Assembly (NCBI GenBank): GCA_963747695.1
Contig: CAVVFV010000010.1
Coordinates: forward strand, 133,618-197,617
Source: Candidatus Falkowbacteria bacterium
GTDB lineage: Bacteria; Patescibacteriota; Patescibacteriia; Patescibacteriales; WJLG01
DNA: 64,000 bases
Direction of reading: 5' to 3'
Shown here: positions 8,886-49,447 of the stretch, in pieces
How positions within the stretch are numbered: position 1 is the first letter of the stretch
How the letters are laid out: each line of letters opens with the position of its first letter
Translations under genes and position numbers: made by a program
The notes under the pieces: generated by a model
Databases searched by the model: none
What the model was told of the DNA's origin: nothing
Seen by the model: only the letters and a program-made list of their open reading frames with translations

Positions 8886-8921
8886 ATCCCGCGCCGGACA
8901 TTTACGGAGCGGGATTTTTTT
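8886..8921 (+). terminator. Intrinsic terminator
   Basis: ATCCCGC..GCGGGAT stem followed by T7. Confidence 0.65.
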
Positions 8922-8965
8922 ATATAAAAAAAGTTCCTCGAAGCGATCGCGGAACTTTTAACGGC

Positions 8966-9211
8966 TTATTCCAGAGTGGGGCTGCTGCCCGAAGATAAGA
9001 TTAAATGGACGAGCTGACCGCCGTTCTTCCTTAGTTGGCGGTTAATCCGCTTCTTTTCGGCGCGGTTAAGCCTGACCAATTCCGCAGCGCTCTCCTTTTG
9101 CGAACGCAACGGATATGCCCGGCCCAAAATGCCAGGCTGCTCGGGTAAATTGTTTGAGGGCGAAGCTCCGGCTCTATTCTTCCAGGGCAATAGTTTTGAT
9201 CCCATCGTCAT
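8966..9211 (-). CDS. Small basic hypothetical protein (81 aa)
   Basis: SD GAGGGGAG lies 6 nt upstream of the ATG. No family recognised. Confidence 0.45.
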   Translation of the reverse strand: MTMGSKLLPWKNRAGASPSNNLPEQPGILGRAYPLRSQKESAAELVRLNRAEKKRINRQLRKNGGQLVHLILSSGSSPTLE

Positions 9212-9303
9212 AAAACTCCCCTCTTGATAAGTTTATCGATTTTTCCCTAAAAAAAGTACGAATTCGACTTAAAATCATAACAAAGAAAATAAAAACAATC
9301 AAC

Positions 9304-10349
9304 TGTGCGCCGGTCCGGCAGCTTCCAACCAGTTCCCTGCCTGCCGGCAGGCAGGGTTGCCCGCTGACGTGCCCCCGGCACGTCAGCGTCGCTCGATCAT
9401 TCGTCTCGGCTTCCGCCTCGACTCATATCTCGCTCGCAACCAGTTCGAATCCCCATATCTTACAAAAATAAAAATCACCCAGAGGGTGATTTTTATTTTT
9501 GTGCGCTCAGAGGGATTTCCGCGTTCGCTCGCCGCCGGAATGCGGCTCGCTCTCTTGTCCAGGGTTGCCCGCTGACGTGCCCCCGGCACGTCAGCGTCGC
9601 TCGATCATTCGTCTCGGCTTCCGCCTCGACTCATATCTCGCTCGCAACCAGTTCGAATCCCCATATCTTACAAAAATAAAAATCACCCAGAGGGTGATTT
9701 TTATTTTTGTGCGCTCAGAGGGATTTCCGCGTTCGCTCGCCGCCGGAATGCGGCTCGCTCTCTTGTCCAGGGTTGCCCGCTGACGTGCCCCCGGCACGTC
9801 AGCGTCGCTCGATCATTCGTCTCGGCTTCCGCCTCGACTCATATCTCGCTCGCAACCAGTTCGAATCCCCATATCTTACAAAAATAAAAATCACCCAGAG
9901 GGTGATTTTTATTTTTGTGCGCTCAGAGGGATTTCCGCGTTCGCTCGCCGCCGGAATGCGGCTCGCTCTCTTGTCCAGGGTTGCCCGCTGACGTGCCCCC
10001 GGCACGTCAGCGTCGCTCGATCATTCGTCTCGGCTTCCGCCTCGACTCATATCTCGCTCGCAACCAGTTCGAATCCCCATATCTTACAAAAATAAAAATC
10101 ACCCAGAGGGTGATTTTTATTTTTGTGCGCTCAGAGGGATTTCCGCGTTCGCTCGCCGCCGGAATGCGGCTCGCTCTCTTGTCCAGGGTTGCCCGCTGAC
10201 GTGCCCCCGGCACGTCAGCGTCGCTCGATCATTCGTCTCGGCTTCCGCCTCGACTCATATCTCGCTCGCAACCAGTTCGAATCCCCATATCTTACAAAAA
10301 TAAAAATCACCCAGAGGGTGATTTTTATTTTTGTGCGCTCAGAGGGATT
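9304..10349. repeat. Perfect 208-bp tandem array. Five copies of a 146-nt body plus an 18-nt tRNA-Lys 3'-end segment, and four copies of a 44-nt spacer, running directly into tRNA-Lys
   Basis: Unit starts at 9354, 9562, 9770, 9978 and 10186. The track shows four identical 68-aa and three identical 94-aa phantom ORFs at 208-nt spacing. A degenerate TGTGCGC at 9304 marks the distal boundary. Confidence 0.95.
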
Positions 10350-10406
10350 CGAACCCACGACCGTCTCCTTAAGAGGGAGCTGCTCTACCAACTGAGCTAT
10401 GAGCGC
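10334..10406 (-). tRNA. tRNA-Lys (anticodon CTT), no encoded CCA
   Basis: Hand-folded: GCGCTCA/TGAGCGC acceptor, GCTC-AGTTGGTA-GAGC D arm, CTCTTAA anticodon loop, GTGGG-TTCGAAT-CCCTC T arm. It has one U-U T-stem mismatch and one G-A anticodon-stem mismatch. Confidence 0.85.
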
Positions 10407-10412
10407 AAAATT

Positions 10413-10528
10413 CAGATTTAAGTTAAGAAAGAAGAGATAAGGGATAAAAATATAATATCAATTTAACAGAAAATAGTCATTTGTCAACAAAAAAATTTCT
10501 TATCTTTTATCTCTTCTCTCTTATCTGA
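10413..10528. repeat. Imperfect palindrome with purine-rich / pyrimidine-rich arms (CAGAT..AAGAGATAAGGGATAA ... TATCTCTTCTCTCTTATCTGA)
   Basis: Arms read directly. The core CTCTTCTCTCTTATCT recurs in trmD and queA, and near-identically in ruvB. Confidence 0.6.
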
Positions 10529-10535
10529 TTTTGTG

Positions 10536-10609
10536 TGGCGGGGGAGAGAATTGAACTCTCGACCTCGGCGTTATGAATGCCGTGCTCTAACCAGCTGAGC
10601 TACCCAGCC
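10536..10609 (-). tRNA. tRNA with CAT anticodon (elongator Met, or Ile2 if lysidine-modified), no encoded CCA
   Basis: Hand-folded to 74 nt: GGCTGGG/CCCCGCC acceptor (one U-C mismatch), TTCATAA anticodon loop, GAGAG-TTCAATT-CTCTC T arm. Confidence 0.8.
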
Positions 10610-10647
10610 AATGTTTTATCTTTTTTTTAGTTTTATAAAGAATATAT

Positions 10648-10698
10648 GCCGTGCTCCCTGTCCCGCTTCGGCGGGATAACCAGCTGAGCTACCCAGCC
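10648..10698 (-). pseudogene. Truncated 5' copy of the CAT tRNA (positions ~1-31) carrying a 20-nt GC hairpin inserted in the D loop
   Basis: GGCTGGGTAGCTCAGCTGGTTA-[TCCCGCCGAAGCGGGACAGG]-GAGCACGGC, then unrelated AT-rich sequence. No anticodon or T arm. Confidence 0.75.
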
Positions 10699-10703
10699 AA
10701 ATT

Positions 10704-10768
10704 CAATTAAAAGTTAAAAATGAAAAATTACAAATAATTTTTAATTTTGCATTTTTAACTTTTAATTG
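10704..10768. repeat. Perfect 19-bp inverted repeat (CAATTAAAAGTTAAAAATG / CATTTTTAACTTTTAATTG) around a 27-nt loop
   Basis: Read directly. Confidence 0.8.
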
Positions 10769-10771
10769 ACT

Positions 10772-10847
10772 TGGTGCGCCCGGCAAGGATCGAACTCGCA
10801 GCCTCTTGGTCCGAAGCCAAGCGCTCTATCCATTGAGCTACGGGCGC
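10772..10847 (-). tRNA. tRNA-Arg (anticodon TCG), CCA encoded
   Basis: GCGCCCG/CGGGCGC acceptor, CTTGG-CTTCGGA-CCAAG anticodon arm, GCGAG-TTCGATC-CTTGC T arm, ACCA end. Confidence 0.9.
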
Positions 10848-10873
10848 AAACAAATTATTATTTTTTTCAAAAA

Positions 10874-10993
10874 GGGTCCGCCCGGTCATCCGACCGGGCG
10901 CCAGGGGTTCATCCCCTGGCGAAGCCATACACTCTATCCAGTTGAGCTACCGGAGCGCAAAAGGTGCGGGGCTATCCATTGAGCTACGAGCGC
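10874..10993 (-). pseudogene. Two truncated 5' copies of tRNA-Arg-like sequence, each followed by GC hairpin(s) and a T-run
   Basis: GCGCTCGTAGCTCAATGGATAG+CCCCGCACCTTTT (10993-10962). GCGCTCCGGTAGCTCAACTGGATAGAGTGTATGGCTTCG plus hairpins CCAGGGG-ATGAA-CCCCTGG and CCCGGTC-GGAT-GACCGGG (10958-10874). No canonical T arm. Confidence 0.7.
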
Positions 10994-11062
10994 GAAAAAA
11001 CTTGCAACCTTTTCCTTCTAAACTAAATTCAACTTAACATAAACGACCTATAAAATCAAATC

Positions 11063-11165
11063 AGGGACAGAGAAGAGTTAAGAGAGAAGGGATAAATTTA
11101 AATAAAAAATATTTTTACACAATCTCTTATCTCTTCCCTCTTATCTGCCCATCTCCCTCTTAACG
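11063..11165. repeat. Second purine/pyrimidine-arm imperfect palindrome (same family as 10413-10528)
   Basis: GAGAAGAGTTAAGAGAGAAGGGATAA ... TCTCTTATCTCTTCCCTCTTATCTG..CTCCCTCTTAAC. Confidence 0.5.
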
Positions 11166-11224
11166 CAAAAGGAAGAGCGAAATAATTTTTCGTCTTCCTT
11201 TTAAGCCACTGTATATGTGAGAAA

Positions 11225-11506
11225 TTATTTACCTTTCAATGAATCCTTTAATCTTTTGCCGGTGCGGAACTTGGCCACTTTAACCTCCGGGATCTGGATG
11301 CGTTCAGTCGGTTTCTGCGGATTGACTCCGCCGCGGGCGTAACGCGTCATGGTTTCAAAAGTGCCGAACCCGGTAATGGAAACATCACTCCCCTTCTTTA
11401 ACTCTTCGATGATGATGTCCACCATGGAGTTGATCATACTCTCGGCGAGTTTCCGGTTAGCGCCGGTCTTCTCCGCGATCTTCTCGATTAAAGTTGCCTT
11501 GTTCAT
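11225..11506 (-). CDS. hup: HU/IHF-family nucleoid DNA-binding protein
   Basis: MNKATLIEKIAEKTG..ITGFGTFE..RGGVNPQKPTERIQIPEVKVAKFRTGKRLKD. Confidence 0.9.
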   Translation of the reverse strand: MNKATLIEKIAEKTGANRKLAESMINSMVDIIIEELKKGSDVSITGFGTFETMTRYARGGVNPQKPTERIQIPEVKVAKFRTGKRLKDSLKGK

Positions 11507-11647: not shown

Positions 11648-13171
11648 TTATCTGGCGTATTCGATAACGCGGTTTTCGCGGATCACATTAACCTTGATTT
11701 CGCCGGGATACTTCAATTCAGCCTCGATTTTCTTGGCGATTTCACGGGCCAGATTCTGCATACCCAGATCATCGATCTTTTCGGCATTGACAAAGACGCG
11801 GACTTCGCGGCCAGCCTGCAAGGCATAGGATTTTTCCACGCCTTCGAAAGAATTGGTCAGACTTTCCAGTTCTTCCAATCTTTGCAGATAACGTTCATAA
11901 GTGTCGCTGCGGACGCCCGGCCGGGAAGCGGAAATGGCATCGGCAACTTTGACAATGATCGAAATCAAGCCGCGCGGATGATCATCATGGTGGGTTTCGA
12001 TCGGCGCGATGACTTCTTCCGGCAGATTGAATTTCTTGGCGATGTCGCGGCCGATCTCCGGATGTGTTCCCTGAACTTCATGATCGACAGCCTTGCCGAT
12101 ATCGTGGAGCAGACCGGCTTTTTTGGCCAGCGGCACGTCAACGCCCAACTCTTCGGCGAGTAACCCGGAAAGGATAGCGACTTCCACCGAGTGGCGCAAA
12201 GCATTCTGTCCGTAGCTGGTGCGATATTTCAAACGTCCGAGAATCAAGACTAATTTCGGATCAAAACCGGTAATGCCCAATTCATAGATGGCTTCTTCGC
12301 CGGCCTTCTTGATATCCAAGGCCAGATCTTTTTTGGCCTTATCGATCGCCTCTTCGATCTTGGTCGGATGGATGCGGCCGTCTTTGATCAGCGCATCGAG
12401 CGCGCGCTTGGCCACATGGCGGCGGATCGGCGAAAAAGCGGAAATGACGATCGTATTCGGCGTATCATCAACGATGATCTCAACGCCGGCCAATTGTTCG
12501 ATGACTTTGATGTTGCGCCCTTCGCGGCCGATCACCCGTCCTTTCATTTCGTCATTGGGCAGATCGACGTTGGTGGTGGAAATTTCCGGAGTGTAAGAAG
12601 AGACGACGCGCTGCATCGAACTGGCAATCAGTTCTCTCGCCTTTTCGTCGACGGCTTCGTCATTTTCTCTTTCCGCCTTATTCATTCTCGCCACTAAATC
12701 GTCCTTGGCTTCGGCTTCGACATTTTTAAACAGCACTTCCCGAGCCTCTTCCTTGGACATTTCCGCGATCTTTTTTAATTTTTCCAATTGTTCTTCGCGG
12801 ATCACGCGGATCTTTTCTTTCGCTTCTTCGACTTTATTGACCCGGTCGTACAGCTCCTGCTGCTTTTCCTGCAATTCCAATAAGCGTTTGGAAAATGAGC
12901 TTTCACGCTGTTCCAAACGGATCTGCAGGCCGTTCAGTTCTTCGCGGCGCTTGCGTTCTTCTTCTTTGGATTCTTCGATGATCTTTAAGGCCTTGTCCTG
13001 CGCCTTAAGCAAGAGATCTTTTTCTTTGGATCGGGCTTCGTGCAGGATCTTTTCCGATTTGTCTTCGGCGGCGCCGATCTGCTGCGAAACGCGCTGCTTG
13101 CGCACCCAATAACCTAACAAAAAAACTCCCGCGGCAACAATCAGACCAACCAAAATTTCAACAATAATCAT
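11648..13171 (-). CDS. rny: Ribonuclease Y
   Basis: N-terminal TM segment, long K/E coiled coil, KH motif GREGRNIKVIEQLAGVE, HD motif LLHDIGKA..HH. Confidence 0.9.
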   Translation of the reverse strand: MIIVEILVGLIVAAGVFLLGYWVRKQRVSQQIGAAEDKSEKILHEARSKEKDLLLKAQDKALKIIEESKEEERKRREELNGLQIRLEQRESSFSKRLLELQEKQQELYDRVNKVEEAKEKIRVIREEQLEKLKKIAEMSKEEAREVLFKNVEAEAKDDLVARMNKAERENDEAVDEKARELIASSMQRVVSSYTPEISTTNVDLPNDEMKGRVIGREGRNIKVIEQLAGVEIIVDDTPNTIVISAFSPIRRHVAKRALDALIKDGRIHPTKIEEAIDKAKKDLALDIKKAGEEAIYELGITGFDPKLVLILGRLKYRTSYGQNALRHSVEVAILSGLLAEELGVDVPLAKKAGLLHDIGKAVDHEVQGTHPEIGRDIAKKFNLPEEVIAPIETHHDDHPRGLISIIVKVADAISASRPGVRSDTYERYLQRLEELESLTNSFEGVEKSYALQAGREVRVFVNAEKIDDLGMQNLAREIAKKIEAELKYPGEIKVNVIRENRVIEYAR

Positions 13172-14560: not shown

Positions 14561-14593
14561 AATGTTATATTGCTATATTGTTATATTGTCAAG
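14561..14593. repeat. Half-copy of the ATATTG-octamer palindrome family (TGTTATATTGCTATATTGTTATATTGTC)
   Basis: Same left arm as the elements at 22069, 31129, 36681 and 45696. Confidence 0.6.
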
Positions 14594-14650
14594 ATTGGCT
14601 GGATTTGTATAAAGTATTATGTATAATGTATGATGTATTAGGTATCTTGG

Positions 14651-22068: not shown

Positions 22069-22157
22069 AATGTTATATTGTTATATTGTCATATTGTGGC
22101 GCAACGATTTAAAAACTTTTAACAATATAGCAATATAACAATATTGCAATATATTCC
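22069..22157. repeat. ATATTG-octamer palindromic element filling the infB-rbfA spacer
   Basis: TGTTATATTGTTATATTGTCATATTG-TGGCGCAACGATTTAAAAACTTTT-AACAATATAGCAATATAACAATATTGCAATATA. Confidence 0.8.
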
Positions 22158-28236: not shown

Positions 28237-28941
28237 TTAAAACGTTTGTTTTTCTTTACGCCATTTTTTTATTTTATCATGATCGCCGGATAAAAGTACT
28301 TCCGGTACTTTATAACATTTTTTATTAATTGTCAAGACCTCGGGACGGGTATATTGCGGATATTCCAAAACGCCTGCCTCGGAATGGGATTCAGAAACCG
28401 AGCTTTCAGCATTGCCAAGCACGCCGGGCAAAAGCCGGGTGATCGAATCAATCATCACCGCCGCGCCCAATTCGCCACCGGTCAAAACATAATCGCCGAT
28501 GGAAATTTCCTCATCGATAAAATTCGCGACCCGTTCGTCCACGCCCTCATATCGGCCACAGATAAAAACAACTTCATCAAGTTTGGCGTATTCCCGCGCT
28601 TTTTTTTGCGTCCATTTTTTACCCTTCGCCGATAACAAAATAATTTTTCTTCCTCGCCCGCCGAAGCCTTGGCGTAGGCGGGTTTTTTTTCTTCTCTCTT
28701 CTCTCTTATCTCTTATCTGCAAGGCGCGTAGCGCCTTGATGATCGGTTCCGCCTTCATAACCATCCCCGCTCCCCCGCCGTACGGCGAATCATCGACTGA
28801 TCGATGCTTATCAGCCGTCCAATCGCGCAAATTATATGCTTTAATCTTGATAATTTTTTTTACAATCGCGCGCTTAACCATCCCCTCATTAAAATAAGAG
28901 TCCAGCATTTCCGGAAAAATTGTAATAATGTTGAATATCAT
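28237..28941 (-). CDS. trmD: tRNA (guanine37-N1)-methyltransferase, carrying a ~20-aa basic insertion
   Basis: IITIFPEM..DDSPYGGGAGMVM..ICGRYEGVDERV..SIGDYVLTGGE..YTRPE. Extra segment IRDKREERRKKTRLRQGFGGRGR. Confidence 0.9.
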   Translation of the reverse strand: MIFNIITIFPEMLDSYFNEGMVKRAIVKKIIKIKAYNLRDWTADKHRSVDDSPYGGGAGMVMKAEPIIKALRALQIRDKREERRKKTRLRQGFGGRGRKIILLSAKGKKWTQKKAREYAKLDEVVFICGRYEGVDERVANFIDEEISIGDYVLTGGELGAAVMIDSITRLLPGVLGNAESSVSESHSEAGVLEYPQYTRPEVLTINKKCYKVPEVLLSGDHDKIKKWRKEKQTF

Positions 28942-31118: not shown

Positions 31119-31128
31119 ATTTATTATA

Positions 31129-31208
31129 TGGCTATATTGCTATATTGTTATATTGTTAAGCGATTTAAATCGTTGCGTAACAATATGACAATATGACAAT
31201 ATAACAAT
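31129..31208. repeat. ATATTG-octamer palindromic element 10 nt upstream of the ftsH start
   Basis: TGGCTATATTGCTATATTGTTATATTGTT-AAGCGATTTAAATCGTTGCG-TAACAATATGACAATATGACAATATAACAAT. Confidence 0.8.
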
Positions 31209-36680: not shown

Positions 36681-36752
36681 AATGTTATATTGTTATATTG
36701 CTATATTGTTGCGCAACGAATTAAATAGTTTAACAATATAGCAATATAACAA
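36681..36752. repeat. ATATTG-octamer palindromic element filling the DUF4186-ruvB spacer
   Basis: AATGTTATATTGTTATATTGCTATATTGTT-GCGCAACGAATTAAATAGTTT-AACAATATAGCAATATAACAAT. Confidence 0.8.
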
Positions 36753-36753
36753 T

Positions 36754-37107
36754 TTAGCAATTTTCCAATATCCAACTCATTATTATATCAATAATATACC
36801 TATTTTCCTCATCGTTCAAGGCTCGGCCTTTTGGTATCTGGTGCCATTTTTCCAAACAGCCGCGGCAGCAGGTGGCCGTCGCATGTTGTCCGACGAAGAC
36901 CGGATGGCCGTGGAACGGAGTCTGCTTTCCGTCGTTTTTCGGTTCCGCTGGCACCAATCGTTCTTTAATAAATTCTTCCGCGTGCATTTTTATTTCTTCA
37001 ATCCCTTTCTTGTTGATATATTCCAAATTTTTCAGCTTCAACTTAAAACTTGAGCGAAACTTCGACTTGGCCAATCTGATTTTCAATTCTTCCCAACTTT
37101 TAAACAT
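36754..37107 (-). CDS. DUF4186-family protein
   Basis: HPVFVGQHATATCCRGCLEKWH motif, recalled from the family. Confidence 0.65.
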   Translation of the reverse strand: MFKSWEELKIRLAKSKFRSSFKLKLKNLEYINKKGIEEIKMHAEEFIKERLVPAEPKNDGKQTPFHGHPVFVGQHATATCCRGCLEKWHQIPKGRALNDEENRYIIDIIMSWILENC

Positions 37108-43057: not shown

Positions 43058-43130
43058 TCTTCTTACTTCTTACTTCTTACTTCTTACTTCTTACTTCTTA
43101 CTTCTTACTTCTTACTTCTTACTTCTTACT
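43058..43130. repeat. Heptanucleotide microsatellite, (TCTTACT) x10.4, equal to (GAAGTAA)n on the minus strand
   Basis: Counted 10 exact units across 43061-43130. The last unit contains the final Lys codon and the TAA stop of the DUF4340 gene. Confidence 0.95.
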
Positions 43131-44034
43131 TCAAATCCGTCATCTTCTTATCCAGCGCGTCGCGATCGGTTTTGGAAATCAAGTAAATGTCGTCGTTAGC
43201 CGCTGACTTGGCGTAGCAGAGATTGTCTTTGGTACAGTCGCCGATCATGATCGTATCGTCAAAATCTCCGCCTGTAACCTGGACGATGATGCTATGCTTT
43301 TCCAAACCGGTGTTGGTAAAAGTCTGGGCGGGAATCTTCACCGCCGTCAAATTTTGCAATACGCTTAACACCGCGTCAATCTTGGTCGCATCGACGTCGA
43401 ATTTCTTCGGCTGGGTGCCAGTCCACTGGTTGGCGATCTGTTCGACGGTAAATTGCCGGTCAGGATATTGGAAGCGGATCTTCTCGCTGCGTTCCTTCAT
43501 AAAAGAAAAGATGGTCAGGCTGCGCCAATCGCTGCGGCCGAAAATGCTGTTCAAATCCAAAGCGATCGAAAAAGTCTTGCTGGAATCCGGCTCGGCGATG
43601 TAGGTGCCGGAGTAATCGGGCGTCGTGGTGCCGACCACAAAATCAAAAGTCTGCCGGCCTTGTTCGATCTCGACCTTAATTCCCTGACCATCGGTACCGA
43701 AAGAACTTTTTTTATCAGCGTTGGTGCTGACCGTTTCGATCGGCAAAACGCCGATTTCATTCAGCGCCGAGTCCAAGGCGCCGGCGGCGGTATTGTCCAC
43801 GCTGAAATTTTTCACGCCGGCGATCGCCCAACCATCGGCGGTTTTGTCCAATTCGGTTTTCTGCCCGTTATTATCGATCGAGATCTTTTTAATTTGCGCC
43901 AAAGAGACGGCGGCCAGAAAATTCTTTTCCTGCCCTTTGGTTTTTTTCCAGTCAGCCAGCGGTCCGCTCCAGATCCAAGCAAAAGCGACCAGTAATATCA
44001 AAATTCCTCCCAGGATTAAATTCTTTTTAGACAT
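43126..44034 (-). CDS. DUF4340-like protein (N-terminal TM), a usual partner of GldG-type ABC accessory proteins
   Basis: N-terminal anchor LILGGILILLVAF. Operon position downstream of the GldG-like gene. Confidence 0.65.
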   Translation of the reverse strand: MSKKNLILGGILILLVAFAWIWSGPLADWKKTKGQEKNFLAAVSLAQIKKISIDNNGQKTELDKTADGWAIAGVKNFSVDNTAAGALDSALNEIGVLPIETVSTNADKKSSFGTDGQGIKVEIEQGRQTFDFVVGTTTPDYSGTYIAEPDSSKTFSIALDLNSIFGRSDWRSLTIFSFMKERSEKIRFQYPDRQFTVEQIANQWTGTQPKKFDVDATKIDAVLSVLQNLTAVKIPAQTFTNTGLEKHSIIVQVTGGDFDDTIMIGDCTKDNLCYAKSAANDDIYLISKTDRDALDKKMTDLK

Positions 44035-45695: not shown

Positions 45696-45790
45696 AATGT
45701 TATATTGTTATATTGTTACTCAACGAATTTGATTACTCGGCGCATTTTTTTCACAACGCAACAATATGACAATATATCAATATGGCAATT
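45696..45790. repeat. ATATTG-octamer palindromic element filling the permease-GldG spacer
   Basis: AATGTTATATTGTTATATTGTTACTCAACGAATTT..CACAACGCAACAATATGACAATATATCAATATGGCAAT. Confidence 0.75.
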
Positions 45791-49265: not shown

Positions 49266-49447
49266 GTTTATTTAAAAATGATAGATGATAAATGATAGAT
49301 GATAAATTTCTTAACATTATTTATCACTTATCATTTATTATTAATCATTGATACAACCTATTGCTTTTTTTATTAATTTATGTTATACTATTTAGACGTT
49401 CATTTGAAATTAATTAGCCATAAAATCCAATCAACGAAAGGATTGCC

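Follow-up and report, generated by a model that had tools for sequence, protein, structure and literature searches.

The partial tRNA gene copies that surround an Arg-Met-Lys tRNA cluster in an ultra-small bacterium, a Falkowbacteria-like member of the Patescibacteria, are probably non-functional relics of earlier duplicated or replaced tRNA genes, left behind by recombination-driven turnover. This reading rests on the sequence relationships between copies and genes, on the location of the relics behind conserved promoters and ahead of the genes, on their presence or absence in close relatives, and on allele replacement in a sister species. The cluster is sited behind the RNase Y and HU genes in the window, i.e., the whole 64,000-nucleotide stretch of DNA that was analyzed. 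ARAGORN and the Rfam tRNA model detected only three tRNAs in the region, all on the minus strand, as are all the features described below: functional tRNA-Arg (TCG; 10847-10772; 69.5 bits with the Rfam tRNA model), a functional CAT tRNA that ARAGORN assigns to Met (10609-10535), and functional tRNA-Lys (CTT; 10406-10333).

The initial annotation had described tRNA-Arg as preceded by two truncated copies of its 5′ end, each running into GC hairpins and a T-run. Two copies are indeed present, but neither is a clean truncation. Copy 1 (relic 1, 10959-10993) matches positions 1-22 of tRNA-Arg over 10993-10972 (21/22 identities, E 5e-5, blastn-short and repeat search) and then reads CCCCGCACC-TTTT. 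The tail of this copy, CACCTTTTG, can be aligned both to the 3′ end of the tRNA and to the relic 2 tail, both copies being closed by a matching CACC-TTTTG tail, and relic 1 is a unit with an internal deletion. Its D loop has the state CAATGG, which is specific to the window, and it shares 95% identity with the window's real tRNA-Arg. Copy 2 (relic 2, 10868-10958) matches positions 1-38 of tRNA-Arg over 10958-10920, with two 1-nt indels and ∼85% identity. Hairpin A (10919-10901) follows this 5′ part directly, and is succeeded by hairpin B (10900-10879), which resembles an acceptor-stem minihelix, and by GACCC and TTTTT; the tail of the relic is GACCCTTTTTG. The hairpins and T-run are thus real after copy 2, but they are the decayed 3′ half of the gene, because relic 2 aligns end to end with a pseudo-Arg of the sister species L084, and its GC-rich trailing segment can be aligned to the T-loop and the 3′ acceptor end of tRNA-Arg as well as to that pseudo-Arg. 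Judged by these alignments, copy 2 and its hairpins form a full-length degenerate pseudogene with an orthologue in the sister species. Relic 2 is 85-87% identical to any real tRNA-Arg allele, and its D loop (CAACTGG) differs from that of the current gene.

A copy of the CAT tRNA carrying a 20-nt GC hairpin in its D loop had also been reported upstream of that gene, and this was confirmed, with an extent of positions 1-33 (Met relic, 10646-10698). The segment 10698-10677 is identical to positions 1-22 of the CAT tRNA (22/22, E 2e-7), the hairpin TCCCGCCGAAGCGGGACAGG lies at 10676-10657, and positions 23-33 resume after it at 10656-10646. Between tRNA-Arg and the Met relic lies an AT-rich palindrome (inverted repeat I1, 10699-10772, 36-nt arms, 92% complementary), and the relic adjoins this palindrome exactly where the real CAT gene begins in L001, the nearest genome. 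The junction of palindrome and tRNA start is also found in species B (L083), L091 and L092, as it is in L001, where the real gene follows directly. Orthologous Met relics are present in species B and L091, with different hairpins at two D-loop positions, and the locus comparison found none in L001, L084 and L092. The tRNA-derived segments of the relic are identical to the gene sequence in three species, and the neighboring spacers are unalignable. Since these segments span just 11-22 nt, which is short for RecA-driven gene conversion, and are nonetheless identical to the gene, selection may act on them. The AT-rich spacer between the relic and the functional CAT tRNA (10610-10645) is unrelated to the upstream flank of the relic, which argues for inserted DNA, and a simple tandem duplication was rejected.

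It had been considered that these segments might fold into complete non-canonical tRNAs, and this was not borne out. The Rfam tRNA model gave no match at E≤10 outside the three tRNA genes, relic 2 included. In its standard and intron modes ARAGORN found no tRNA among the relics at normal thresholds, and lowered thresholds produced only spurious or degenerate calls; a tRNA-like call for 10872-10958 required a threshold of 70%, and its anticodon loop was abnormal, with a 4-nt ‘anticodon’. The relics and their hairpins matched no Rfam family, either at gathering score or at E≤10, and the Rfam search of 8900-11250 at E≤10 returned only hairpin-type matches far below gathering scores, mostly to eukaryotic microRNA models. 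From their homology, the failure of the tRNA models and their lineage-specific presence, we classify the relics as putative tRNA pseudogenes.

The array of 3′ ends noticed downstream of tRNA-Lys is likewise present: it comprises 4.8 units of 208 bp (9352-10349; Tandem Repeats Finder, 100% matches between units), each of which begins at position 58 of tRNA-Lys. Within a unit, tRNA-Lys positions 58-74 are accompanied by a bidirectional terminator, by a T-loop piece that is inverted and has eroded (GGGATTCGAAC), and by X, our name for a structured, GC-rich body some 145 nt long. Homologues of X lie 3′ of tRNA-Lys in L001, L083, L084, L095 and L098; the element is confined to one small clade and adjoins tRNA-Lys in every case. 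In a covariation test on four sequences, a small sample, 16 of the 35 conserved pairs showed compensatory changes on both sides and 99.3% of the cells were paired; none of 500 shuffles reached the observed values, and slid controls gave at most 2 such pairs. The pairs are almost purely Watson-Crick (one G-U and no A-C among 140 cells). Neither X nor the 208-bp unit matched any Rfam 15 family at gathering score, and lowering the cutoff to E≤10 yielded no family for X. A tmRNA, a two-piece tmRNA, an SRP RNA, a Y-RNA-like RNA and a ribozyme-bearing rolling-circle unit were considered and set aside for want of a model match; for a tmRNA-type RNA, ARAGORN called no tag reading frame. The inverted tRNA end lacks the complement of CCA, and a retroviral-type primer-binding site was likewise rejected. 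GC hairpins in the window are mostly terminators; one of them, CCTGCCGGCAGGCAGG, was considered as a mobile repeat and proved elsewhere to be a plain bidirectional terminator.

Comparison with related genomes, which the initial annotation had recommended, largely bears out the refuting case named there, in which the copies are decay products that other genomes lack. L001, whose RNase Y is 96% identical, is without any 5′ copies; their presence varies among species with an identical HU protein, and between species they also differ in length and hairpin content. L084 carries an Arg relic, L100 a Lys 5′ relic, and L096 and L103 have a 12-nt Arg relic with hairpins ahead of two different Arg alleles. 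Identity between tRNA-Arg alleles is only 72-87% in a set of genomes that share 99-100% identity in their Met and Lys genes (the CAT tRNA is 100% identical between the window, L083 and L084). Once its insert is removed, the L084 relic matches the intact tRNA-Arg gene of L001 at 36/36 positions, and the working tRNA-Arg of L084 is another allele, with a 171-aa ORF behind it. These alignments show that the tRNA-Arg allele was replaced in the sister species, and close relatives have exchanged tRNA-Arg alleles. The relics hold the ancestral promoter-proximal position, and the working gene is displaced downstream. Relics of different tRNAs carry related hairpins, of two families (F1 and F2), at the same two places in the D loop, a recurrence not predicted by passive decay.

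The predicted promoters lead to a similar picture. A promoter-like site for the tRNA-Arg unit, recognized by consensus only, lies at 11031-11059 (TTGATT-N17-TAAGTT, with TG upstream of the second hexamer). It is invariant in an alignment of seven related loci, and precedes the first tRNA-like start in each arrangement: copy 1 in the window, the pseudo-Arg in L084, and the real gene in L001, species B, L091 and L092. A weaker predicted promoter, read by eye and below the threshold of the promoter scan, lies within the AT-rich palindrome (TTGTAA at 10733-10728, N17, TTAATT at 10710-10705) and ends 6 nt before the Met relic. The tRNA-Lys promoter (TTGACA-N16-TAAATT at 10487-10460, 10/12 matches in the promoter scan) lies in a GA-rich palindrome (inverted repeat I2, 10421-10526). 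The scan detected no promoter between the relics and their working tRNA genes, the spacer behind the Met relic included. Their position suggests that all the 5′ copies are leader sequence between conserved promoters and functional genes, and not separate 5′-half genes.

We compared this layout with that of integrative islands at tRNA genes. A census of 91 related loci (1.35 Mb, 253 tRNAs), counted per parent gene, found a same-strand 5′ fragment upstream in 8 parent genes and a same-strand 3′ fragment downstream in 14; no gene had a 3′ fragment upstream. The 22 parent genes that obey the island rule are accompanied by 2 exceptions, which are downstream 5′ fragments, both cross-matches upstream of the next tRNA. 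All fragments in the window are on the strand of their parent, with Arg and Met 5′ copies upstream and Lys 3′ copies downstream. In tRNA-gene islands the 5′ fragment is likewise upstream and the 3′ fragment downstream, and crossovers occur in the anticodon loop or the T loop (Hudson et al. 2015, PMC4383910; Williams 2002, PMC100330). The window therefore presents the configuration by which Islander recognizes an island, a complete tRNA beside a same-orientation cognate end fragment, and shares with islands the tandem arrays and the relative rarity of 5′ fragments, which account for 159 of 3919 islands (PMC4383910). Sixteen of the 19 3′ fragments begin within the T loop, at positions 54-58, and the L100 3′ fragment follows a lineage-specific substitution of its parent; both features suggest a site-specific or ongoing process, not one-off accidents. 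However, several properties depart from those of islands. The fragment-to-parent distance is 7-320 bp (up to 816 bp across the array), whereas Islander accepts candidates of 2-200 kb (PMC4383910), and an element body of kilobase size is absent at these tRNA intervals. The intervals in the window (35-210 bp) hold no ORF and no tyrosine integrase gene, and no integrase domain was found in the neighboring ORFs examined or among the called genes of related loci. The 5′ breakpoints are scattered (12, 19-22, 27, 29, 33, 38, 48 and full length), some copies are full-length pseudogenes and not clean end fragments, and hairpins lie inside the fragments. The repeated insertion or excision that had been proposed is thus favored by the ancestral position of the relics, the exchange of Arg alleles and the island-like layout, but simple site-specific integration and excision is unsupported, given the scatter of the 5′ breakpoints and the lack of both an integrase and an element body.

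In the reading that we prefer, the cluster would be a recombination hot spot in this lineage. A second copy, either a duplicate or the allele of a relative, would be placed beside or into the resident tRNA gene. One copy would remain functional, and the other would retain only the end adjoining the old promoter (5′ relic) or the old terminator (3′ relic); the rest of the losing copy would be deleted or degenerate, with GC-rich hairpins later building up there. The conserved Arg promoter would transcribe relic 1, relic 2 and then, by read-through, the working tRNA-Arg, the Met relic would be the 5′ leader of the working CAT tRNA, and RNase P would remove the relic-bearing leaders. Illegitimate or one-sided homologous recombination after DNA uptake would best fit the scattered 5′ breakpoints, with a site-specific step possible at the tRNA-Lys T loop. 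In homology-facilitated illegitimate recombination during natural transformation, a conserved anchor on one side is combined with a variable, illegitimate joint on the other. With a tRNA as the anchor, such events would yield scattered breakpoints and foreign spacers, and would fit the replacement of tRNA-Arg, but they leave the T-loop clustering of the 3′ fragments and the recurrent D-loop hairpins unexplained. A second parallel is found in organelle genomes, where tRNA pseudogenes are left by duplication and random loss. There too, degenerate copies stand beside functional ones, decay is lineage-specific and tRNA models fail; here, in contrast, the copies lie in a bacterial chromosome, the spacers are not copies of the upstream flank, and alleles are apparently replaced from relatives, so that the process is not purely internal duplication. 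A literature search found no relevant work on partial tRNA copies in Patescibacteria or on hairpin-bearing tRNA pseudogenes.

The most serious alternative, which we nevertheless regard as unlikely, is that the relics are by-products of miniature cassettes without an integrase that insert site-specifically into the T, D and anticodon loops of tRNA genes. Such cassettes would bring the missing tRNA end with a terminator or a leader; they would be shrunken islands of 50-210 bp whose recombinase is encoded elsewhere, and the 208-bp array would have arisen when one of them was integrated in tandem or amplified. The island-defining layout, the T-loop start of most 3′ fragments and the fixed D-loop positions of F1 and F2 across relics of different tRNAs are in its favor. 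In addition, L095 shows a nested accretion (tRNA-Lys, terminator A, module Y, 3′ fragment, terminator 1, X), and in L001 and L084 X has on one side a regenerated tRNA-Lys end, complete with a terminator of its own, and on the other a displaced 3′ fragment, behind which comes a second, shared terminator context. The nearly complete Watson-Crick pairing of X is expected of a folded DNA site, and folded single-stranded recombination sites are known from the integron attC and the CTX phage attP. Like these sites, X and the module ends are inverted repeats; folded back about a structured center that varies, they resemble their target, the 3′ region of tRNA-Lys, and their stems covary with almost no G-U pairs. 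The small hairpins also recall REP elements and mitochondrial GC clusters, GC-rich palindromic repeats that invade non-essential DNA. However, the attC consensus boxes are not recognizable by eye in X, and no integron integrase, Xer-exploiting phage or REP-associated transposase is linked to any of these elements. Against the cassettes stand also the lack of an integrase in the intervals or neighboring ORFs examined, the scatter of the 5′ breakpoints, and the restriction of X to its place beside tRNA-Lys in one small clade, with no sign of new sites. Neither X nor the hairpins were found in viral sequences: viral contigs scanned for the X end, the tRNA-Lys 3′ end, F2 and the D-loop/F1 junction yielded nothing related, and blastn of the X unit against phage records gave no match. 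(The scan of viral contigs returned one unrelated match, a jumbo-phage tRNA array, L094.) An 18-mer from the X start gave only two chance matches in a metagenome scan, in unrelated organisms (L081 and L082). Finally, extension of the terminator palindrome, as in L098, would suffice to produce the inverted tRNA end at the X start.

A more specific form of the cassette explanation is, in our estimate, rather doubtful. It holds that tRNA loops in this clade of Patescibacteria are the docking sites of undescribed, gene-less miniature cassettes, with X (208 bp), Y (about 200 bp), F1 and F2 as their representatives. Equally doubtful are its two corollaries, that the cassettes fold back to mimic the tRNA end or bring a replacement tRNA end with a terminator, and that an outside recombinase, possibly acting on folded ssDNA acquired by competence, inserts, excises and amplifies them at the T or D loop. 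Were the docking sites real, an active system would have left the partial tRNA copies as its footprints, and a recent amplification would account for the 4.8 identical X units.

It is improbable that the relics are kept for an RNA function, either as attenuating or pairing-competing 5′ leaders that control tRNA output or as 5′-half-like small RNAs. Hairpin B with its T-run was the one site in the region called as terminator-like, the relic 5′ leader folds slightly better than shuffles (z = -2.4), and the tRNA-derived segments of the Met relic stay identical to the gene in three species despite fast change of the spacers. However, the 5-nt GACCC separates the stem of hairpin B from the T-run, and an efficient terminator there would silence the only tRNA-Arg(TCG) of the cluster, a gene that lacks its own promoter. 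No terminator-like site lies in the Met relic, whose fold is no better than that of shuffles (z = -1.5). Relic 2 has drifted to 85% identity, the relics are missing from L001 and several species with an identical HU protein, and the sequence, number and position of the hairpins differ between species, with no structure kept. The earlier suggestion of deliberate 5′-half transcripts ending at terminators is likewise improbable, given the shared promoter, the gap before the T-run, the absence of the copies from L001 and their variability.

An artefact of assembly, by wrong concatenation of strain variants or mis-assembly of a repeat, is very improbable. In its favor, the window comes from a metagenome-type assembly whose array units show 100% identity, and the short-read contigs L089 and L093 break inside repeats. 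These independent assemblies nevertheless share relic sequences and junctions with the window: in L089, copies 1 and 2 and the first hairpin recur without a difference, and L093 has the same array end junction. Moreover, four assemblies of different origin show an identical arrangement for species B, and many unrelated MAGs contain analogous structures. As assembled, the region is really in doubt only in the copy number of its array.

In the split tRNA genes of Nanoarchaeum and the permuted ones of Cyanidioschyzon, the halves are the only copy and are joined into a tRNA. That the segments are parts of split, permuted or intron-containing genes joined as RNA can practically be dismissed: separate 5′ pieces followed by GC-rich sequence, hairpins in loops where archaeal introns are tolerated, and a complete tRNA-Arg in L073 flanked by 5′ and 3′ fragments with complementary GC-rich sequences between recall such genes, but a complete functional gene of the same identity adjoins every relic, no partner half exists (no Arg or Met 3′ fragments anywhere in the 64-kb window), the intron mode of ARAGORN was empty at normal thresholds, and bacteria are not known to possess the archaeal splicing endonuclease.

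The attractive but unsupported idea of purpose-built 5′-half tRNA genes is replaced by that of recombination turnover, which probably leaves leader and trailer debris in these tiny genomes. During annotation, relics of this kind, and the hairpins in them, may be taken for small RNAs, terminators or split tRNAs, and they break short-read assemblies at tRNA clusters. The covarying 208-bp unit beside tRNA-Lys is a candidate for a new structured RNA or DNA element. The island-like layout at a scale of tens of bases without an integrase, the exchange of Arg alleles between neighborhoods that are otherwise nearly identical, and the recurrent D-loop hairpins suggest that tRNA genes are unusually active recombination sites in Patescibacteria, and so strict an arrangement of fragments merits genome-wide attention in this group.

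The chromosome that carries the window belongs to the Patescibacteria (Candidate Phyla Radiation), close to Candidatus Falkowbacteria, and the best related contigs came from Patescibacteria and Falkowbacteria MAGs. ARAGORN and the Rfam tRNA model called the same three tRNA genes: tRNA-Arg(TCG) at 10847-10772, a CAT tRNA (Met according to ARAGORN) at 10609-10535, and tRNA-Lys(CTT) at 10406-10333. All the tRNA genes, relics and the array described here lie on the minus strand. The cluster neighbours the genes for HU (11225-11506) and RNase Y (11648-13171), with purine-synthesis enzymes and thioredoxin reductase also encoded nearby, and most of the related loci that were retrieved share the gene order RNase Y, HU, Arg, Met, Lys. 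The initial annotation reported partial tRNA copies beside this cluster, and self-matches in the window confirmed that they are real. Upstream of the working tRNA-Arg, copy 1 (10993-10972) matches positions 1-22 of the gene at 21 of 22 nt, and copy 2 (10958-10920) is ~85% identical to positions 1-38 and includes two single-base indels. The copy of the CAT tRNA (Met copy, 10698-10646) consists of a segment with 22/22 identity, a 20-nt hairpin (TCCCGCCGAAGCGGGACAGG, 10676-10657) and tRNA positions 23-33. Downstream of tRNA-Lys, a 208-bp unit (X) forms an array of 4.8 copies with 100% identity (9352-10349), and every unit starts at tRNA-Lys position 58. An assembly artefact is unlikely, the array copy number perhaps excepted, because two independent short-read contigs reproduce these features: L089 carries both Arg copies and the first hairpin unchanged, and the array end junction in L093 is the same as in the window.

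These segments are probably relics, left by tRNA genes that were replaced or duplicated and now lying within the leaders of their working counterparts. Copy 2, together with its hairpins and T-run, could be aligned end to end with a pseudo-Arg in the related locus L084, and the alignment takes in GGCGCCC(G/T)GTCG(G/A)ATG...GGGCGG, i.e., the T loop and acceptor 3′ end. In addition, ARAGORN at a 70% threshold called 10872-10958 as tRNA-like with an abnormal anticodon loop. Given the whole-length alignment and this call, copy 2 is a full-length degenerate pseudogene. The tail of copy 1 (CACC-TTTTG) resembles that of copy 2, so copy 1 is a unit with an internal deletion. The D loop of copy 2 reads CAACTGG, as in other alleles, and that of copy 1 CAATGG, which is specific to the window.

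A promoter-like site, TTGATT-N17-TAAGTT with a TG before the second hexamer (11059-11031, minus strand), is invariant in seven related loci. Downstream of it lies the real tRNA-Arg in L001, species B (L083), L091 and L092, copy 1 in the window, and the pseudo-Arg in L084. Similarly, the Met copy adjoins an AT-rich palindrome at the junction where the real gene of L001 starts, and no promoter was found to separate the copies from the working genes. From these junctions and the lack of an intervening promoter, the copies hold the ancestral gene position, with the working genes shifted 90-150 nt downstream. The proposal that the copies are deliberate 5′-half transcripts ending at terminators is unsupported, given this leader position, the lack of an intervening promoter, and a sole terminator-like call (10900-10879) in which five bases separate the stem from the T-run; efficient termination at this site would turn off the one tRNA-Arg(TCG) gene that the cluster has.

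Each tRNA promoter was found in the loop of a long palindrome of short tandem units, TCTTATC/GATAAGA or AT-rich (10421-10526, 10699-10772 and 11069-11146; 28690-28718 is also listed). At the same positions in relatives, the palindromes are built from very different units. L001 and L100-L103 have CGAAGT, species B has ATTATAAATT, and L095 and L096 share GATTTTCGA. A dispersed intergenic repeat of 3-4 tandem GTTATATT units, a 20-45 nt spacer and 3-4 inverted AACAATAT units is present in five copies in the 64 kb (14563-14645, 22071-22153, 31124-31208, 36683-36763 and 45699-45790), possibly as promoter-flanking arrays that bind proteins. ATGATAG units are arranged in a similar way at 49276-49349, and a perfect heptamer, CTTCTTA x 10.6, was observed at 43059-43132. 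The tandem repeats of 270-273 bp at 477-2104 (4.7 copies at ~75% identity; 273 is divisible by 3), to which a repeat region in L001 is homologous, appear to encode a protein domain repeated within a large gene at the window start.

The relics vary among close relatives. L001 (RNase Y 96% identical) and L092 (HU identical) have neither an Arg nor a Met 5′ relic. Species B, known from four independent assemblies and with an HU identical to that of the window, has no Arg relic, and carries a Met relic with a D-loop hairpin (CCCGACTCGCC...CGAGGCGGG) inserted after GCTGG. With HU again identical, L091 has only a Met relic, with two hairpin inserts, and L084 only an Arg relic, with a 62-nt D-loop insert. 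L096 and L103 (HU 96-99% identical) have a 12-nt Arg relic and hairpins, preceding two different functional Arg alleles, and no Met relic; L100 (HU 96% identical) has neither, and has a Lys 5′ relic. The tRNA-Arg(TCG) genes (window 10772-10847, L001 12150-12223, L083 4404-4476, L084 4685-4759) fall into three classes, one of them distinguished by its D arm (GTGGTGAAACGGATATCAC), and share only 72-87% identity. They thus differ by 13-28% among genomes in which HU, tRNA-Met and tRNA-Lys match fully or almost fully (Met and Lys genes 99-100% among the window, L001, L083 and L084, with the L001 Met gene at 96%). This implies that tRNA-Arg was repeatedly replaced by foreign alleles. In L084, the relic minus its insert is identical to the intact tRNA-Arg of L001 (36/36), and the working gene, followed by a 171-aa ORF, is a different allele; here the resident tRNA-Arg was replaced and the old copy then decayed. 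Plain tandem duplication is argued against by the relic-to-gene spacers, which bear no repeat of the sequence preceding the relic. The tRNA-Arg/tRNA-Met spacer is an insertion hot spot, and small ORFs are inserted there in L084 (4789-5304, 171 aa, cysteine-rich) and L092 (1965-2336, 123 aa). In the contig L086 (880-4685), an identical HU gene and Arg promoter are followed by GC-rich DNA encoding TruD- and NMD3-like proteins rather than by the tRNA cluster; either chimeric assembly or rearrangement at the tRNA site could account for this.

A census of 91 non-redundant loci (1.35 Mb, 253 tRNAs) yielded 39 partial copies lying no more than 1 kb from the parent gene, spread over 15 loci. Counted per parent gene on the same strand, 3′ fragments were downstream of 14 genes and upstream of 0, and 5′ fragments upstream of 8 and downstream of 2, the two exceptions being matches to the conserved D arm that precede the next tRNA. 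Partial copies occur across the lineage and obey a rule. The same configuration serves to recognise integrative islands at tRNA genes; in the published island survey, 3′ fragments are far commoner than 5′ fragments and crossovers fall in the anticodon or T-loop region (PMC4383910). Unlike in islands, the intervals here are 7-320 bp, an integrase is absent, the 5′ ends are scattered (12, 19-22, 27, 29, 33, 38, 48, full length), and the 3′ fragments mostly begin in the T loop (positions 54-58, 16/19). The earlier idea of insertion or excision at tRNA genes held in part: turnover among relatives and the island-like layout agree with it, and the absent integrase and scattered 5′ ends do not. Taken together, these differences favour illegitimate or one-sided homologous recombination, by which the 5′ relics would have arisen; for tRNA-Lys, a site-specific step at its T loop is possible. 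DNA uptake is believed to occur in these bacteria.

Two GC-hairpin families recur at the same two D-loop positions in 5′ relics of Arg, Met, Lys and one more tRNA from different genomes. Family F1 (CCCGCCTCG...CGAGGCGGG, after GCTGG) was found in the Lys relic of L002 (11706-11738) and the Met relics of L083 (4566-4597) and L091 (2489-2592). F2 (TCCGCGAC...CCGCTCACGGCC...AGCGGGG, after GG(A/T)TA) was found in the Arg relic of L084 (4538-4600) and the Met relic of L091, in copies ~85% identical, and its position also holds the hairpins of the window (10657-10676) and L074 (3668-3683). Passive decay does not predict such recurrence, which suggests copy-and-paste or targeted insertion. In three species, the tRNA-derived segments of the Met relic have kept full identity to the gene, and the spacers are unalignable.

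The X unit (e.g., 10125-10332) begins with an inverted tRNA-Lys 3′ end, mirrored around a bidirectional terminator (complete in L098, L083 and L084, eroded to a T-loop piece in the window), and ends with a direct copy of tRNA-Lys positions 58-74. Its GC-rich body of ~145 nt has a conserved multi-helix structure: 35 pairs are common to four homologues, 16 of them with changes on both sides and pairing kept, and 99.3% of the 140 cells are paired, with only one G-U and zero A-C pairs. The observed values were reached in 0/500 shuffles, and slid controls gave at most 2 such pairs. X, which is absent from Rfam, may represent a new element, either a structured RNA or folded DNA. A second conserved module, Y, differs from X and separates tRNA-Lys from a 3′ fragment (positions 54-74) in L095 (3923-4108), L096 (3969-4154) and L100 (3373-3556), and also occurs in L002 (11865-11957). 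In order, Y has a terminator whose stem covaries, ~150 nt of conserved AT-rich sequence, a GC hairpin that also covaries, and tRNA-Lys positions 54-74; the L100 fragment has its parent's lineage-specific T-to-C change. L095 has both modules nested, Y proximal and X distal to tRNA-Lys, which looks like successive insertions at one site. The hairpin recurrence, the Met relic identity, the X fold and ends, and the Y nesting keep alive a more novel reading, that miniature cassettes dock at tRNA loops, which we consider improbable.

Read as remnants of replaced or duplicated genes, the relics would be a new small-scale variant of the already known island signature. The D-loop hairpins and the X element are two unexplained side observations that are worth genome-wide attention.
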